Under the pieces are notes generated by a model that was not told the DNA's origin, made no database searches, and saw only the letters and a program-made list of their open reading frames with translations. Below, piece by piece: positions 709 through 30,243 of a stretch of 34,992 nucleotides of DNA. Position numbers and translations under genes: made by a program. The stretch lies in IMG/VR virus record IMGVR_UViG_2663763256_000001. One strand, written 5' to 3'. This DNA comes from a virus. Taxonomy: Duplodnaviria; Heunggongvirae; Uroviricota; Caudoviricetes. The stretch's first letter is position 1. Each line of letters begins with the position of its first letter.

Positions 709-3700
709 TACCGATATGCTCCACTTAACCGACCACCATCACGGGCCTGCTGTTGCATAAAGTCCGCTGCCGCTTTTTTCCCGAGGTCATAAACCGCCTT
801 CAGGGCAGCCGGACCTATCTGCCCGTTCGTGCCATCGTTATTGATCTCGATGTTGTACTGCGGGGAAAACATCGCCATACCTGAACCCCCAATATCCGCC
901 ACAACCCCCAGCTTACCGTCAGCACCACGACGCAGTGGCAGAATGGCTTCAGGTCCCGCTTCCCCCATCACACCCGCGCCTTTTGCAAAAGCAAAAAACG
1001 TCGGACGGTTAACCACCGTGCCACTGTAACGACTCAAATCAGCAGACTGATAAATCCCCCCATTGGCATTCAGGGAAAGGCTGCTGAGATCAAATCCCAG
1101 TACACTGCCAATCCCTTTTATCGATTTCATCATGGTTGCCTGCGCCAGGATTTTCGCCATATCTGACAGCACAGAAGAGGTGAAGGATTTGAAATTGAGT
1201 TTGCCGGTAGTGACAAAAGTTGCCAGGCCATTTCCCATGTTGCTGAAGGCTGACGAGAACACCTGTTCTGCTGTTTCTGCCGTATTATCTGCATCCACGG
1301 TAAAATCCTGAAATGCACGCAGGACTCCGTTTTTCCAGTTACCCTGCACAACTTCAAGCTGTTGCCAGTAACGGCGATTCTCATTCAGTTGTCGGTTCAG
1401 GCTCTCCGTCAGCGCCTGCTCGGCCTTTCTGTAGTCATCCGTGTTATATGTCCCTTTCTGCTCACTATCCCGCCTCAACTGCTCCAGCTGTTGCTGGTAT
1501 TTCTGGCGAAGACTCAGTTGTACCTGATATCGCTGTCGCTGCTGATCACCCATACCCACCGTGGCGATATCCAGGTCATGTTGCTGACGCTGAGCGCGCT
1601 CTTCTTCAGCCAGTTGACTGGTCAGCTGAATTGTTTTTTTCTTCAGCTCGTTGAGTGCCGTCTGTTTCTGAAGCTCCTGCTGTTTTACATCCAGCAGCGT
1701 CAGTGCCTGAATCAGTTCATCTTTACGGGCCAGCACACTCTTTTCATCTGCCGTCAGTTTTTTCCCGTCCAGGTCGCTGATGCGCTGCTGCAGAGCCAGA
1801 AGCTGTTTATGCGCTTCTGTCATCCTTTCCGTGGCAATGCCTGCTGACTGTCTGGCAGCAGCAATCTGTCCTTCCACCTGTGCCTGTTGCTGACTGTACT
1901 GCAGCAATAACCGGGTGGCCTCATCATTACGGGTTTCGCGTGTTTTTTTCTTACCGGATGCCAGGGCTTTCTCGTAACGTTCATTTTCACGTTGTATCGC
2001 CGCATCCCTGACAGCCTGATCGGCGTACTGCATGGCATTAATACGCGCAATTTCACGCTGATGTCGTGCAGCTTCCGTTTCATTCATCCGGTTCAGTGCA
2101 GCATTTTCAGCATTACGGCGTTTCTGTTGCTCCTGATAATTCCGCTCTGCCTGCTCTTTTGCATCCTGCAAATCCTTCTGGCGTTTTTTCTCCTGAAGAT
2201 CGTTAAGACGCTGCTGATCGTATTCAACCTGAGAAGATGATGCCGTCCAGGGGAGTCTTTTCGCCCGCGACACTTTCTCCTGTAAAGCGGCAATCTGTTC
2301 ATCCAGCGAGTCTTCACGACCAATATTCATGGCCGCATCCCAGAAACGACTCCATAAATCAGACAGATACTTCAGCGTACTGCCCAGCGCATTGAGGTTA
2401 TTATCAATATCCGCAGTACGCCGACCGGTTTCCTCTGCCAGTGCAGACATGGCTATCCGTGCAGCATCACTGGACCGCCCCTGATCCCCAAGGACGCGTA
2501 TCTGCTCAAGCTGAGTGGCAGTAAGAAAATGCAGCTCATTGTCCAGAGCCTTCGCGGCATTTACAGGATCATCCTTCAGCCGCTTAAACTGATTTATGGT
2601 ATCGCTGACCGACTGGCCAACCGATCGCTCCATCTGTGCGGCAGCTCTCGCCACCATACCGATATCGTTTCCACGAAATGCACCACTCCCCACCACCTGA
2701 GCCAGCGCACCGGCTGCAGCATGTTGCGTGATACCATTCCCGGAAATAGCACGACTGAGCGTCCACAGCTGCCCGGCAGTGACTCCGGCATAATGCCCCG
2801 TCAGTGACAGCTGGCGGTTAAATTCTTCCCCCTCCTTCTGACCGTCATACCAGGCTTTACCCAGACCATAGACGGCCGCGGCAATACCGCCAATAACCCC
2901 GCCCAGCATCATGCCTTTCGGTGACATCAGTGTGTCTATCCATCCGGCACGGTTAGCCAGCGTTATCCCGGATCCCCTCAGCGCTCCTAAATTGCCACGG
3001 GCCAGTTCACCTATCAGAACGCCTATCTCCTGGCGGGCTGCTGCACTTTTCAGACCCAGCGAATGCGTGGCTTTTCCTGCCTGCTCCATTTTGCGGATAT
3101 ACACTTCTGCAGCACTGCTTACCCCCAGCTGGGCTGCCCTGGCACGAAGCAACTCAGAAGATGAAAGATTCTGGCGGGTTGCCTGCTCTTTAAGCTGACG
3201 GATAAACGCCACTTTCTGTCGGGTAGCCTCTTCCTCAGCCTGTGTAAGAACACGGGTTTTCGCCGTAACCTCAGAAATCAGCGCCAGATAATCCTGCTGA
3301 CCAATCCCGCCACTGTTTCTGGTCTGTCGGATCTGCTGCTGAATACGCTGTAATTCCTGCAGCCCCGCACTGGCCTGTTTCACACTGTCAATCTGACGAT
3401 AAAACGCAGCAGCCGCTTTATCCTGAGCCTCCGCCAGAGCCATGGCCTGCGCCTGTTCCTCACGCATTTTCTGGCTCAGTGCCTCCATGCGCTGGCGGGT
3501 TTTCTCCACCTCGCGGGCCATGCGTTCATGAGCCTGTGCGTTCTTCTCCACCGTCTGCGCATGGACGGATGCGGCTGTTGCAGCCGAAGAAGCCGCCTGC
3601 GTTGTCTGCCGGGCGGCCTGAGTCTGACGCTCCATAAAACGCTGCATACGGGCAGAAGACCGTTCTGCATCGCTGGCTGCACCATTCAGAAGGTTTTTGA

Positions 3701-3803
3701 TACGGGGAATTTCATTTTTAAACTCTGCCGCATCAATCCCCAAATCAATGACCAGGTTGGCTATCTGGTCCATAACGCACACCTCCGGAAATACCTTCCC
3801 CAA
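708..3803 (-). CDS. H: tail tape measure protein (H-like)
   Basis: 1031-aa ORF with a long Ala/Gln/Glu-rich coiled-coil centre. C-terminus NDGTNGQIGPAALKAVYD matches the recalled lambda gpH C-terminus. True start may be the internal MDQIANLVIDLG, about 3773. Confidence 0.9.
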   Translation of the reverse strand: MGKVFPEVCVMDQIANLVIDLGIDAAEFKNEIPRIKNLLNGAASDAERSSARMQRFMERQTQAARQTTQAASSAATAASVHAQTVEKNAQAHERMAREVEKTRQRMEALSQKMREEQAQAMALAEAQDKAAAAFYRQIDSVKQASAGLQELQRIQQQIRQTRNSGGIGQQDYLALISEVTAKTRVLTQAEEEATRQKVAFIRQLKEQATRQNLSSSELLRARAAQLGVSSAAEVYIRKMEQAGKATHSLGLKSAAARQEIGVLIGELARGNLGALRGSGITLANRAGWIDTLMSPKGMMLGGVIGGIAAAVYGLGKAWYDGQKEGEEFNRQLSLTGHYAGVTAGQLWTLSRAISGNGITQHAAAGALAQVVGSGAFRGNDIGMVARAAAQMERSVGQSVSDTINQFKRLKDDPVNAAKALDNELHFLTATQLEQIRVLGDQGRSSDAARIAMSALAEETGRRTADIDNNLNALGSTLKYLSDLWSRFWDAAMNIGREDSLDEQIAALQEKVSRAKRLPWTASSSQVEYDQQRLNDLQEKKRQKDLQDAKEQAERNYQEQQKRRNAENAALNRMNETEAARHQREIARINAMQYADQAVRDAAIQRENERYEKALASGKKKTRETRNDEATRLLLQYSQQQAQVEGQIAAARQSAGIATERMTEAHKQLLALQQRISDLDGKKLTADEKSVLARKDELIQALTLLDVKQQELQKQTALNELKKKTIQLTSQLAEEERAQRQQHDLDIATVGMGDQQRQRYQVQLSLRQKYQQQLEQLRRDSEQKGTYNTDDYRKAEQALTESLNRQLNENRRYWQQLEVVQGNWKNGVLRAFQDFTVDADNTAETAEQVFSSAFSNMGNGLATFVTTGKLNFKSFTSSVLSDMAKILAQATMMKSIKGIGSVLGFDLSSLSLNANGGIYQSADLSRYSGTVVNRPTFFAFAKGAGVMGEAGPEAILPLRRGADGKLGVVADIGGSGMAMFSPQYNIEINNDGTNGQIGPAALKAVYDLGKKAAADFMQQQARDGGRLSGAYR

Positions 3804-4472
3804 GATGCATCAGTTCTTCGTCCGTTCGCTCCGGTATCCCGTTCTCTTCCGGTAAAAGGCTGAAATCAGCCACCGCAGCATCACTGCTGCCGGACACCAT
3901 TCTCACGATCAATGCCTTCAGCGAGGCAAACTGCGCATCCATCCACACATCACTGAAGCTCTGCATCCGGAAATAATCGCCCCACTCACCAAGCTCAGTG
4001 GCCGACATTTCCGACAGCATCCGCCGCCAGTCTGCCCGCCGGAACTCCCGGGCAAGCCGCATGACAAACTGCATTTCCCGCGTCAGGACTTTTCCGGCGT
4101 CAGCACCTCATGCTCCAAATCCCCGGCATTCTCAATGACTCCCATACCGCTCAGCGACAGAACCATCTCCGCCCCCGCTCCCAGGGCATCATACGACCAT
4201 GTTGTAATAACGGATGCGCAAAGCGTCTCAACATCCTGAGACTGTTCCGCATTCCACAGTGAGCGGGAAACCAGCCAGGCATTGATATCCATCCCCATCC
4301 GCAGAAAAGCAATCTGTCGTTCAGCCTCCGGCAGTTCTCCCTCTTCGGCATCAAACTTTGCCGTTCGCTGCTGAACAAACGCCAGATATTCAATTCTCTG
4401 CAGCCCGGACAGCTCACTGAGCACCACGGACTGTTTTTCATAATTAAACGTGTCCTGTTTCAGAAACATCAT
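3745..4472 (-). CDS. T: tail assembly chaperone G-T fusion, predicted to be made by -1 programmed frameshift near 4086-4107
   Basis: ORF 3745-4074 (FRRADWRRMLSEMS...) resembles lambda gpT. It is in the -1 frame relative to G, and that frame is open upstream only to a stop at 4108-4110. The G frame ends with TGA at 4083-4085. The join position is inferred. Confidence 0.6.
4083..4472 (-). CDS. G: tail assembly chaperone G
   Basis: 129-aa ORF MMFLKQDTFNYEKQSVVLSELSGLQRIEYLAF, similar to the lambda gpG N-terminus (MFLKTESFEH...LSELSALQRIEHLAL). AGGTG Shine-Dalgarno about 8 nt upstream of the ATG ATG start. Confidence 0.8.
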   Translation of the reverse strand: MMFLKQDTFNYEKQSVVLSELSGLQRIEYLAFVQQRTAKFDAEEGELPEAERQIAFLRMGMDINAWLVSRSLWNAEQSQDVETLCASVITTWSYDALGAGAEMVLSLSGMGVIENAGDLEHEVLTPEKS

Positions 4473-14914: not shown

Positions 14915-15185
14915 AATGTTACCGTAATATGTGAGTATCCATCGACTAGACACTAAGCAAAAAAGCTCCCGAAGGAGCCTTCATTTTCACTTTCTTAAAT
15001 CTAACGACAGACGGCTAACATTTAAGTATTGTGAAATATTATCAAATGTAATCATCATTGATTTACAAAAGATACATTTTGCCCCGAAAGGATTCCTGTC
15101 AGAAACATCAAAAGATGATGTTCTATACTGAGAACCATGGCAACACGGGCATCTAAAGTGAATATGGTTTGTAATATTTTCTACC

Positions 15186-15398
15186 TCAAAGTGCCACAAC
15201 ATGAACAGCCGCGGGGCCTTTAGGTCCGTTCTCAATACCAAATTCGACTTCCTGATTCTCAGTTAACGTTTTGAAATCGTTGCTCTGAATAGCTGAGAAA
15301 TGGACAAACACATCTTTGCTACCATCTTTCGGCGTGATGAAACCAAAACCTTTTTCAGGGTTAAACCATTTCACTAAACCAGTCATTTTGTTAGACAT
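15186..15398 (-). CDS. cspI: cold-shock protein, CspA family (CspI-like)
   Basis: [38 protein letters not shown] carries the cold-shock domain RNP motifs. AAGG Shine-Dalgarno; long AT-rich 5' region upstream, typical of csp genes. Confidence 0.85.
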
Positions 15399-15761
15399 CA
15401 TTATTACCTTTTGAAGAAGTTAGCCCTTGGGCAGAATGGTCCGAAAAAAAATATCAGAGAGAAAAACCAACAAGGAAATCTCAAGAGGTACAAATAATAA
15501 AATTATAACAATGACTGCTTCAGATAATTTTGTAACAAACCAGAACACCATTAACGCATGATTAACCAACCATAGCAAGGATTACTTTTGTAAAGAAAAA
15601 CACACGAATGAAACAATAGCTTTATTTATTAATAAAACGTGTCATTCTGTCTAATGACCTTTTATCTTACCCTTAAGATTTCAAGGATTTTGACTCATGG
15701 AAGAGTCCTTTTTATTTAAATTTCACATTCAGCGCTAAAAATAATCCGATTTAATATTAAT

Positions 15762-18789: not shown

Positions 18790-18824
18790 AAATCAATATA
18801 AACAGCCCCTCCGGAGAGGGGCTG
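18790..18824 (-). terminator. strong intrinsic terminator
   Basis: Perfect 9-bp stem CAGCCCCTC-(CGGA)-GAGGGGCTG. T-rich tract (TTTATATTGATTTT) follows on the - strand. Confidence 0.6.
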
Positions 18825-19215
18825 GAGAGTGGCGCTATGTGCCATTGCATGGTGCCGGGTGCCTCCCGGTGAATTCAGTACCAGCACCTGAATCCGCGAT
18901 TATCCCATATACCTACTCGCTGATTGCCCCTCCGCACAGGGGGATTCACCATGCCAGTTTCTTTTAACAAACCCCCCGCAAACCAGACAACAGTCAACCG
19001 CCTGAATTGTGAAGTATTTAAAAATTTCTCCCGCTAACTGATACCCGGCTAACAGTCTGGTGTTTTCTTTTTCAGCAACGGGAAAGCAACAACCACCACA
19101 CTCGCCACCAGCACACCGTCAGCCAGCACTGACATTATCCGGCTGCTGCAATGCCATTCACAAAAACAGTAAGCAATCACTTTTTACCGTAACAGGTGAT
19201 AATCCAGATATGTAT

Positions 19216-19679: not shown

Positions 19680-19756
19680 TGGCGCGCTGTACTGGATTCG
19701 AACCAGTGACCGATTGCTTAGAAGGCAATTGCTCTGTCCGGCTGAGCTAACAACGC
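19680..19756 (-). tRNA. tRNA-Arg (anticodon UCU)
   Basis: The - strand reads GCGTTGT-TA-GCTC..GAGC-A-ATTGC-CTTCTAA-GCAAT-..-ACTGG-TTCGAAT-CCAGT-ACAGCGC-G-CCA. Cloverleaf with 7-bp acceptor stem, GTTCGAATC T-loop and encoded CCA. Confidence 0.85.
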
Positions 19757-19786
19757 TGAATACCGATAATGGACCGCCATCGGGGA

Positions 19787-19799
19787 CCCCCCCCCCCCC
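19787..19799. repeat. 13-nt homopolymeric C tract (G13 on the - strand)
   Basis: GGGGA followed by 13 C, in the spacer between the two tRNA genes. Confidence 0.9.
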
Positions 19800-19860
19800 G
19801 CACCAACAACCCTGTTATCGTGTCGTCTGCTCTTCCTGATAAGCTCATGGCGGTTTGTGA

Positions 19861-19936
19861 TGGTGGCCCTTGCTGGATTTGAACCAGCGACCTGGCGATT
19901 ATGAGTCGCTCGCTCTCACCACTGAGCTAAAGGACC
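19861..19936 (-). tRNA. tRNA with CAU anticodon (Ile2-lysidine type or Met; ileZ-like position)
   Basis: The - strand reads GGTCCTT-TA-GCTCAGTGGTGAGAGC-G-AGCGA-CTCATAA-TCGCC-AGGTC-GCTGG-TTCAAAT-CCAGC-AAGGGCC-A-CCA. Good cloverleaf. Confidence 0.8.
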
Positions 19937-23072: not shown

Positions 23073-23228
23073 TTACTCCTCAGGTTCGTAGACTGTGAAG
23101 ACAGCGACCTCCGTCTGGCCGGTTCGGATTCGTACCTCGCAGAGGTCTTTCCTCGTTACCAGTGCCGTCACTATGACGGTTAAACAGATGACGATCAGGG
23201 CGATTAACATCGCCTTTTGCTGCTTCAT
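23073..23228 (-). CDS. hokD: Hok-family type I toxin
   Basis: Hand translation gives MKQQKAMLIALIVICLTVIVTALVTRKDLCEVRIRTGQTEVAVFTVYEPEE (51 aa), an almost exact match to recalled Hok/HokD. AAGGAGAAG RBS. Below the 60-aa cutoff of the ORF track. Confidence 0.85.
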   Translation of the reverse strand: MKQQKAMLIALIVICLTVIVTALVTRKDLCEVRIRTGQTEVAVFTVYEPEE

Positions 23229-23485
23229 AGCCTGCTTCTCCTTGACCTTTCGGTCCGTAAGAGGCTAATCTCTATGTGTCGCATAGATATGGCCTCAGAT
23301 TAATGTTAAACGTCTTGCAGGACGCGTAATGTTACCTGGGGCTTTTCTCTATCTGCCGTTGGTGTTCATGCCCGAGGCAGATAGCCTCAAGCACCCGCAG
23401 TCATTCTACTTAACTAAGATTTCCCCGCAAACCGTTTTTGTCCAGCACAATAAATATCCAACTAAACCAATGGAGTTCGCTGTAT

Positions 23486-23665: not shown

Positions 23666-24096
23666 TATTCCTCCTACAATCAATGTGCAATTACATTTAA
23701 ACACACCTCAATTTGGCCGGACATATAAATATCTAAACTAGAAAAAATCACTTACATAGCGTTACAAACTCTTTAGTCTAAAGGTTCATCGTAAAACACT
23801 CCCCATACTTATCAGTCCGTTCCGCGCCAGGTAGCTTATTGCCTTATCTGGCAACCTATAATCAGGTTTCCGCTTTTTCAGTTGGCTGGTCGTTTAACCG
23901 ACATAGTTAACCCATTAATCTAGTTGCCGGATGTTGGTGGATTTTCGCGTTTTAGTTGTTCATAAAAGTGCACAGCTTTAACCAGTTCTTCTGATGTAAC
24001 CAGGGCTGGTGAGGCAGTGAATAAGGCCTGAATTTGATAGTTCGGCCTGTCGTTACAATCCTCTTTTTTCGGTACATATTTCCAGTCAACAGACCA

Positions 24097-24207
24097 CTAC
24101 TTCTCCTGAAAGTCCGTAACGCCTTTTTTCACGTAGCGATATCGCCATGCCACTGGTTTTGCTTGCTCCGCCGTTTCATACCCTTCCTGATAATTAATCT
24201 CGCTCAT
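24097..24207 (-). CDS. small protein (36 aa), coupled to the upstream gene
   Basis: ATG overlaps the upstream stop (ATGA). MSEINYQEGYETAEQAKPVAWRYRYVKKGVTDFQEK. Not in the ORF track. Confidence 0.35.
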   Translation of the reverse strand: MSEINYQEGYETAEQAKPVAWRYRYVKKGVTDFQEK

Positions 24208-24380
24208 TCATCGCCCCACTCATCACAATATGCTTCGACCGGATTTTTTCCTGCTTCATAATCATCACGCCATGCTTCAGCATCAGCAGCACTGCCACCA
24301 CGTAACTCTGCATAGTCCATTAACAGTTCATGCCATTTTTCAAAACTGACGTTGTATTTAGTTGAACCAAAATCAGCCAT
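24204..24380 (-). CDS. small acidic protein (58 aa)
   Basis: MADFGSTKYNVSFEKWHELLMDYAELRGGSAADAEAWRDDYEAGKNPVEAYCDEWGDE. Start lies 2 nt after the upstream stop. Not in the ORF track. Confidence 0.45.
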   Translation of the reverse strand: MADFGSTKYNVSFEKWHELLMDYAELRGGSAADAEAWRDDYEAGKNPVEAYCDEWGDE

Positions 24381-24555
24381 TTTGCTCTTCCTCTTCGTCT
24401 TTTATTTCGTGATATGAGTAATTGCAGTAGTTAAAGAAAATATCTTTTGCTTCGTCATGTATTTCATCAGGCGTCGCATCAGCATCCACTTCGAATTCAT
24501 CCTCGAAATCTCCACCAGCCATTCCCGTTTCAATAATTATTTTGAACTTTCGCAT
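24373..24555 (-). CDS. small highly acidic protein (60 aa)
   Basis: Track ORF ...GGDFEDEFEVDADATPDEIHDEAKD...EIKDEEEEQNG. First gene of a three-gene coupled cluster. Confidence 0.45.
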   Translation of the reverse strand: MRKFKIIIETGMAGGDFEDEFEVDADATPDEIHDEAKDIFFNYCNYSYHEIKDEEEEQNG

Positions 24556-24648
24556 TTCACTACCGCCCTTTCGGGTGGCCTCCTGCTGTTCTGAGGGTGC
24601 AGAAATCCCTCCGGTTAAGGATTAAATTTTTAACAGTGCTAAATTTAA

Positions 24649-24981
24649 TTATTCAGTTTTGGATTTTGTCACCCTGCGTATCCACGCTTTCCCGTTACGC
24701 TCAATCTGAATTAGCTTTTCTATATTTTTTCGCCTTTCCCGTTCCTCCTGGCGCAAGAGCCTTACATCATCTGCCAGTCTGGTTTCTCTTTTCGCCACAG
24801 AGAGCATCCAGTCAAATGGCTCCACAACTGCACCGCAGATTTTACAGCGGACCTGACGCTCTTTTTCGTCAACCCGGACAGAAGCGTGATGGCAATATGG
24901 TCTTTCCGATGGCTCATAAAGAAAATTAACCTGATTACGAGGGTCATCCTCTTTTATCGGAAATAAAACGATATTGCTTAA
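24649..24981 (-). pseudogene. 3' fragment of a nin-region gene disrupted by IS5; its 5' remnant with RBS and ATG is at 26181-26204
   Basis: The reading frame continues unbroken into the IS5 left end. After removing IS5 and one TTAA copy, the gene reads AAAGGAGAGGAGC-ATG GAA ATA AAA CCA GAG GAT TAG TTA AGC AAT ATC... = MEIKPED-amber-LSNIVLFPIKEDD... Contains C-x-H...C-x-x-C motifs. Confidence 0.6.
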
Positions 24982-26176
<1,195 letters not shown>

Positions 26177-30185: not shown

Positions 30186-30243
30186 TTTCTGGTGACGTTT
30201 GGCGGTATCAGTTTTACTCCGTGACTGCTCTGCCGCCCTTTTT
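30186..30243 (+). ncRNA. dicF: DicF small RNA
   Basis: TTTCTGGTGACGTTTGGCGGTATCAGTTTTACTCCGTGACTGCTCTGCCGCCC followed by TTTTT matches the recalled 53-nt DicF sequence. Lies between the ydfC and dicB homologs, as in Qin. Confidence 0.75.

Follow-up and report, generated by a model that had tools for sequence, protein, structure and literature searches.

The IMG/VR virus record IMGVR_UViG_2663763256_000001 (Caudoviricetes) is a stretch of 34,992 nucleotides, here called the window, and represents a Qin/Rac-type lambdoid prophage of Escherichia coli. On its minus strand, between positions 24097 and 24555, lies a cluster of small overlapping open reading frames (ORFs), made up of two real genes, ORF1 and ORF2, and the stub of a pseudogene, ORF3. 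It is nearly certain that ORF1 and ORF2 are under strong purifying selection, that they belong to two evolutionarily independent families with small compact predicted domains, and that together with the leader in front of them they form a mobile cassette of two genes in lambdoid prophages of E. coli. Both proteins are strongly acidic. Their proposed role, to which a probability of roughly 45% is given, is that of small binders or inhibitors directed at a basic protein surface of the host or of a rival element.

Two conserved genes and a pseudogene stub

The original prediction described a coupled cluster of three small proteins, two of them acidic and rich in aromatic residues, and suggested that they could be DNA mimics or anti-defence factors. 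All three minus-strand frames are present, at 24373-24555 (ORF1, 60 amino acids (aa)), 24204-24380 (ORF2, 58 aa) and 24097-24207 (ORF3, 36 aa). They overlap as described: ORF1 and ORF2 share 8 nt (ATGGCTGA), and the stop codon of ORF2 shares 4 nt (ATGA) with the start of ORF3. The two acidic products are those of ORF1, which contains 19 Asp/Glu against 5 Lys/Arg (net charge -14, isoelectric point (pI) 4.06) and 8 aromatic residues, and ORF2, which contains 15 against 5 (net charge -10, pI 4.17) and 9 aromatic residues.

Conservation was followed in 81 distinct versions of the module; their sources were 160 loci of IMG/VR and, as annotated records, L001 and L002. The persistence of the ORFs in related prophages, on which the original prediction was made to depend, is evident for ORF1 and ORF2, whose lengths and overlap are kept in about 95% of the distinct copies. 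ORF1 has 60 aa in 77 of the 81 modules, ORF2 has 58 aa in 78, and the 8-nt overlap is retained in 77. For 27 distinct nucleotide versions of each gene, the ratio of nonsynonymous to synonymous polymorphism (pN/pS) was found to be 0.095 for ORF1 and 0.091 for ORF2. Variation is concentrated at third codon positions, and the ratio does not change when the codons of the overlap are left out.

The module is also widespread. DNA matching window positions 23900-24700 was found in 2316 of 5426 complete E. coli genomes (43%), and the exact protein sequences of ORF1 and ORF2 each occur in at least 1000 contigs, where they are named only as hypothetical, prophage protein or DUF7167. ORF1 and ORF2 are common, already catalogued hypothetical prophage genes, and the module is an ordinary accessory one. 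Its interest lies in the fact that a region so frequent in E. coli, carried also by Stx2a-converting phages and strongly selected, is without an assigned function.

The analysis mainly corrects the annotation, to two real genes and one pseudogene; the third member of the cluster proved not to be a 36-aa gene. ORF3 stops at an in-frame TAG in codon 37, where the intact copies encode P, Q, M, L or S. When this TAG is read through, a 95-aa frame is obtained which matches phrog_660 with an E-value of 5.7e-25, as against 3e-06 for the stub alone, and in RefSeq the identical sequence is annotated as a pseudogene with an internal stop. Moreover, the product of ORF3 has a net charge of 0 and is not acidic. 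Comparison with an intact 171-aa copy revealed four lesions in the third gene of the window. Besides the TAG at codon 37 there is another nonsense codon, TAG at 23920-23922; 90 nt have been lost in frame between AATCCNCCA repeats, and a further deletion removes 4 nt and shifts the frame. The remainder of this decayed phrog_660 gene extends over 23786-24096 on the minus strand; its original stop codon lies at 23786-23788 and a C-terminal remnant ORF is left at 23786-23854.

Independent families carried by a mobile cassette

ORF1 is a full-length member of the Pfam family DUF7167 (PF23768), its residues 2-53 aligning with profile positions 1-60 of 60 at 52.6 bits (cutoff 24.4) and an E-value of 4.8e-14. 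It also matches phrog_1997 (E 1.3e-29), and RefSeq names the identical protein (WP_001224679.1) "DUF7167 family protein". No paper mentioning DUF7167 was found in the literature searched. An AlphaFold2 model built from a 43-sequence alignment of distant relatives (mean predicted local distance difference test (pLDDT) score 84.8) predicts β-strands at residues 2-8 and 17-23 and a helix at 29-43, followed by a less confident aromatic and acidic C-terminal tail. The family pattern is M+K..V.IETG..G....E.EV.DDAT.EEIEE.A....FN...W. In two metagenomic proteins, P0207 (105 aa) and P0208 (129 aa), DUF7167 is duplicated in tandem within one chain. Since such duplicated single chains exist, the usual single-domain proteins of about 57 aa would be expected to work as dimers, and ORF1 probably acts in this form. 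Two further long matches of ORF1 (P0203, P0249), which cover it in several stretches, were rejected as domain fusions, being repeat or wrong-frame junk. One phage contig (L187) carries two DUF7167-like genes separated by about 600 nt, one at 2998-3174 and the other, a divergent copy with an insertion (E 8e-6), at 3775-3975.

ORF2 has no Pfam family and belongs to phrog_519, which it matches with an E-value of 5.1e-22. An alignment of the family, including Vi01-like homologues among others, upholds its membership. Some members of phrog_519 bear an additional N-terminal part, whereas ORF2 covers only profile positions 76-137 of 143. The family is uncharacterised, and its members come from Kuttervirus/Vi01-like phages (for example Vi01_151c) and from enterobacterial prophages. 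ORF2 is 50-57% identical to the Vi01-like proteins, with which it has the motif GGSAADA-AW-DY-GKTP-AW-DEWG in common. Across the family W37 is invariant, and T7, F13, W16, L20, A24, D40, Y41, G44 and W55 are nearly so. The AlphaFold2 model, based on a 53-sequence alignment (pLDDT 89.1), has a disordered N-terminus and three predicted helices at residues 13-26, 34-42 and 47-55. Two apparent leads on this family were discarded. A DUF1187-ORF2 "fusion" (P0124) looks like read-through from the ORF upstream, and an apparent mention of phrog_519 in a paper on the virion proteome of phage W70 was a prefix artefact of phrog_5197, a whole-word search giving zero hits.

In E. coli-type loci the two genes travel together. 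ORF2 was found in 80 of 80 loci seeded with ORF1, and ORF1 in 79 of 80 seeded with ORF2. The cassette has at least three different kinds of upstream junction, and the leader 5' of ORF1 (24556-24648 in the window, minus strand) moves together with it. It is found either in a nin-like region, with the replication genes on one side and hokD, rusA and Q on the other, or in an early-left region of the exo-xis type. The latter arrangement is seen in the Stx2a phage ArgO145, where the cassette corresponds to gp15/gp14 and is followed by an Ead/Ea22-like gene. An E. coli-type cassette with an ORF2 93% identical was also met on a 3-kb contig (L192) titled as a metagenome-assembled genome of Collinsella sp.; this is probably a binning or contamination artefact and not an actinobacterial occurrence.

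Behind the fixed pair lies a position which is, with near certainty, a variable "Ea22 slot". Gene 3 follows ORF2 as a 171-aa version in 27 of the 81 modules, a 119-aa version in 11 and a 104-aa version in 3, the 171-aa and 119-aa products being phrog_660 proteins; an Ead/Ea22-like protein (196-270 aa, PF13935) stands there in 6. In a further 30 modules frameshifts or nonsense codons have broken gene 3, leaving no more than 85 aa. Whichever gene fills the slot, its ATG overlaps the stop codon of ORF2 in nearly all 81 modules. Because the versions have the ATGA junction and the first seven or so codons (MSEI[N/D]YQ) in common, a mosaic recombination joint is placed just inside gene 3; the DNA identity with ArgO145 stops at about window position 24186. 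Gene 3 of the window thus resembles the Ead/Ea22-like proteins in its slot, its first seven or so residues and its ATGA coupling to ORF2, but it differs from them in being a phrog_660 pseudogene with no Pfam family.

Outside the E. coli cassette the two families part. A local scan with hidden Markov models found a DUF7167 gene in none of 22 non-E. coli ORF2 loci and an ORF2-family gene in none of 8 DUF7167 loci. A scan of genome contigs with one alignment (A2) yielded only 8 loci, so that taxonomic breadth is under-sampled. As a general rule, an obligate functional pairing of ORF1 and ORF2 is rejected on this lack of co-occurrence, phrog_519 being coupled to DUF7167 in E. coli and standing on its own elsewhere, though the two may form a complex in E. 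coli phages. ORF2 homologues standing alone follow Ead/Ea22 genes in lambdoid prophages of Enterobacter, and RecT and AlpA in prophages of Proteus; one is present in a Mu-like prophage of Aquitalea, Vi01-like Ackermannviridae carry one behind the major capsid gene, and in P2-like Salmonella prophages the homologue overlaps the end of the replication gene gpA at a variable hotspot. The last are represented by three loci (L180-L182), in one of which (L181) the hotspot also holds an nSTAND/AAA_16 gene, probably a defence gene. DUF7167 in turn occurs alone in Klebsiella Guernseyvirinae, where it immediately precedes a PD-(D/E)XK/DUF2800 exonuclease gene and overlaps it; among small early genes near recombination genes in other temperate phages of Gammaproteobacteria; and in a phage whose neighbouring genes (YopX, DUF1642) are of Firmicutes type. 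Structural relatives of DUF7167 were found in phAPEC8, in a Streptomyces phage and in Lactococcus phage 949. The ORF2 family extends to large virulent phages of Salmonella and Klebsiella that are in use for therapy or have been proposed for it, and DUF7167 reaches phages of Gram-positive hosts.

Acidity and candidate functions

Strong negative charge is a property of both families. The median net charge is -11 in the family of ORF1 and -9.5 in that of ORF2, and every member is negative. Since this negativity is conserved in both, the charge is probably functional, and it fits binding to a basic protein surface. ORF1 and ORF2 are tentatively proposed to encode non-essential accessory proteins of the delayed-early phase, both translated from a single polycistronic mRNA, ORF1 from its own ribosome-binding site and ORF2 by predicted coupling to ORF1. 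Each protein would act autonomously as a small stoichiometric binder or inhibitor. Its acidic surface would cover a basic surface, probably one that binds nucleic acid, on a conserved protein of the host or of a rival element, and the outcome would be host takeover or counter-defence. If either protein does inhibit a host or defence protein, it would provide a tool of very small size that is easy to synthesise, and would account for an accessory module common in prophages.

A narrower and more doubtful version of this proposal is that the DUF7167 dimer and/or the three-helix phrog_519 protein represent the first members of new inhibitor families, in which very small acidic phage proteins block a host or defence protein that is conserved and binds nucleic acid. 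If true, nucleic-acid mimics or other counter-defence or host-takeover factors of this kind would be present in temperate and virulent phages of several bacterial phyla and kept in a large fraction of E. coli genomes. Two neighbouring genes give weak hints of counter-defence, judged from similarity to protein profiles. At locus L190, a DUF7167 homologue has its start overlapped by the gene of a zinc-ribbon protein (2729-3001) that matches Lar below threshold (E 7e-5, 23.4 against 28.6 bits), and at locus L177, a 66-aa protein (3159-3359) encoded directly after the ORF2 homologue of the Mu-like Aquitalea prophage has a sub-threshold match to the Acb2/Tad1 hairpin family (E 8.8e-4).

Several observations count against a role as binders or inhibitors of basic surfaces. 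The charge per residue is -0.23 for ORF1 and -0.17 for ORF2, compared with -0.18 for lambda NinF and a range of -0.43 to +0.22 among small early proteins of lambda, so that such acidity is not exceptional among small lambdoid early proteins. Part of the charge of ORF1 may reflect a constraint at the RNA level, because a portion of the acidic tail, encoded by GAA GAG GAA GAG, doubles as the likely Shine-Dalgarno sequence of ORF2. The Lar-like and Acb2/Tad1-like neighbours fall below Pfam thresholds, and the position of the ORF2 homologue in Vi01-like Ackermannviridae, behind the major capsid gene, is not obviously an early one. Finally, neither ORF1 nor ORF2 showed sequence, profile or fold similarity to any characterised inhibitor, DNA mimic, anti-CRISPR (Acr) or defence-related protein. 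A phmmer search of the PDB returned nothing significant for either protein, NCBIfam gave no meaningful match, and PADLOC matched neither of them, its only hit being one at noise level (E 0.011) to the read-through of gene 3.

According to one rival explanation, which takes up the original prediction, ORF1 and/or ORF2 are DNA mimics whose carboxylates imitate the phosphate backbone and block type I restriction-modification, bacteriophage exclusion (BREX) or other DNA-binding defence enzymes, in the manner of T7 Ocr, ArdA and T4 Arn. ORF1 and ORF2 resemble these proteins in Asp/Glu density and early context, and ORF1 also in its likely oligomerisation. The conserved acidity of each family, the early accessory location and the Lar-like (restriction alleviation) gene directly upstream of one DUF7167 homologue are consistent with mimicry, and a cross-phylum spread fits a generic target. 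Moreover, the ORF1 dimer would have about 120 aa and a charge of about -28, which is similar to the size and charge of known DNA mimics. Against this, no sequence or fold similarity links the two proteins to Ocr, ArdA or Arn, the monomers are about half their size, and acidity is an unspecific property that lambda NinF has at similar density. Of the anti-defence prediction, the conserved acidity was thus upheld and the kinship to known mimics in fold or sequence was not. DNA mimicry or anti-restriction by ORF1 and ORF2 is neither supported nor excluded by the analysis, and it is considered quite unlikely. A related suggestion is that the ORF2-family proteins are anti-CRISPRs. It stems from AcrHub/PaCRISPR predictions, in which phrog_519 figured among the in-silico anti-CRISPRs in 5 of 6 Kuttervirus genomes (PMC9409062), and ORF2 is small and acidic, as are many Acrs. 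Such predictors, however, favour any small acidic phage protein. No anti-CRISPR-associated (Aca)-type helix-turn-helix gene lies beside ORF2 in the window or in the examined contexts, and no fold similarity to solved Acr structures rose above noise; the suggestion is considered very improbable.

The small ORFs orf60a, orf63 and orf61 of the lambda exo-xis region are of similar size (60-63 aa) and have overlapping frames; an Ea22-type gene follows them directly, in an early accessory region that is non-essential. The ORF1-ORF2 cassette itself occupies the exo-xis region of ArgO145. By analogy with these ORFs and ea8.5, though not by homology, ORF1 and ORF2 could modulate the lysis-lysogeny decision or prophage induction through host regulators. 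The lambda-like layout of small overlapping ORFs directly upstream of the Ea22 slot agrees with this, as does the location of the genes beside Ead/Ea22, xis and int in ArgO145 and the Enterobacter prophages; effects of exo-xis small ORFs on lysogenisation and induction are described in published work (PMC6213356, PMC5575149, PMC3824215). The likeness does not extend to the proteins. Orf60a belongs to DUF1317 and Orf63 to DUF1382, not to DUF7167 or to the Pfam-less family of ORF2; Orf60a and Orf61 are basic whereas ORF1 and ORF2 are strongly acidic; and comparison with the small exo-xis and nin proteins of lambda by tblastn, hmmsearch and hhalign revealed no homology, all hhalign probabilities being below 20%. 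In addition, both families have members in phages that are strictly virulent (Vi01-like, phAPEC8, Lactococcus 949) and never decide for or against lysogeny; this role is considered unlikely. A function in replication or recombination, for example as modulators of a phage or host nuclease, a single-stranded DNA-binding protein (SSB) or an annealing protein, has about the same low probability as DNA mimicry. DUF7167 homologues repeatedly adjoin and often overlap recombination genes: in Klebsiella Guernseyvirinae the exonuclease gene directly downstream is accompanied by a Gp2.5-like SSB, and RecT-like, Erf-type and SSB genes lie nearby in other loci. The position of ORF2 homologues after RecT and gpA, and that of ORF1 and ORF2 downstream of the replication genes in the window, point the same way. 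Yet the neighbour varies by phage with no one partner gene conserved, and proximity is weak evidence because early operons mix replication, recombination and accessory genes. Lastly, the frames might be chance or decaying ones with no function. The surroundings in the window have indeed decayed, with an IS5 upstream, a nonsense codon in the upstream gene and gene 3 broken, and for ORF3 this account is correct. For ORF1 and ORF2 it is hardly credible given the retention of length, the third-position variation, the cross-phylum homologues and the confident folds, and at the level of the families it is refuted by a pN/pS of about 0.09.

Leader, insertion sequence and prophage surroundings

The leader contains an AGGAGG at 24579-24584, 24-29 nt from the ATG of ORF1. 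Between the two lies a 6-bp GC-rich hairpin with a GAAA loop (24563-24578), followed by 7 nt to the ATG. The loop is of the GNRA type, being GAAA, or GGCA in variants, and the hairpin is conserved at all three types of upstream junction. Among 19 variants it is about 90% paired, with one compensatory change from G-C to A-U; covariation support from these 19 is statistically insufficient. The copy in the window has an A.C mismatch, which is restored to A-U in some copies. The AGGAGG is too distant for a normal Shine-Dalgarno sequence, and the hairpin could bring it into working range. A hairpin is reported to have this role in T4 gene 38. Neither a sigma-70-like promoter nor an intrinsic terminator was detected on the minus strand inside the cluster or immediately upstream of it, and an Rfam scan of the whole window found nothing within or beside the cluster except sok.

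The sequence is identical in strain 2014EL-1343-2 and 96% identical in phage vB_EcoS-640R1. On the strand of the cluster the gene order begins with a cro/DicC-like gene, a YdaT/cII-like gene, an O-like replication gene, DUF977, the zinc-ribbon gene, ORF1, ORF2 and gene 3, and continues with hokD/sok, a rem-like gene, DUF968/YdfU, rusA, Q and tRNAs. By this order the cluster falls within the rightward operon, in its nin-like, delayed-early section.

Upstream of the leader, a 5'-truncated zinc-ribbon gene (24649-24981, minus strand) matches phrog_1621 at an E-value of 4.3e-50. Comparison with the uninterrupted sister copy L001 showed that a complete IS5 (24982-26176, minus strand, 1195 bp, with a TTAA target duplication) is inserted at the 5' end of this gene; its transposase (25116-26108, 330 aa) is co-oriented with the operon. 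The 140-aa ORF listed at 24649-25071 is, as a result of this insertion, a chimera of the zinc-ribbon gene and the end of IS5. In L001 the TTAA target already holds an in-frame TAA in the zinc-ribbon gene, where 640R1 has GAA. The IS5 lies between the cluster and the replication genes together with the early-right promoter, and expression from this promoter is probably compromised in the present prophage. Together with the damaged flanking genes, the IS5 suggests that the region is decaying and makes expression of the cluster here uncertain.

A hokD-type toxin ORF (51 aa, 23073-23228, minus strand) lies just downstream of the decayed gene 3, accompanied by the sok antitoxin RNA at 23226-23396 on the same strand (RF01794, 100.8 bits). 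Other RNA features of the window are the small RNAs DicF (30187-30238, plus strand) and STnc100 (18794-18983, minus strand) and a cspA-type thermoregulator leader (15140-15556, minus strand). Downstream of Q, two tRNA genes (19680-19936, minus strand) encode an Arg-UCU tRNA and a tRNA with a CAU anticodon, the latter assigned to Met by ARAGORN and to Ile in the RefSeq sister copy.

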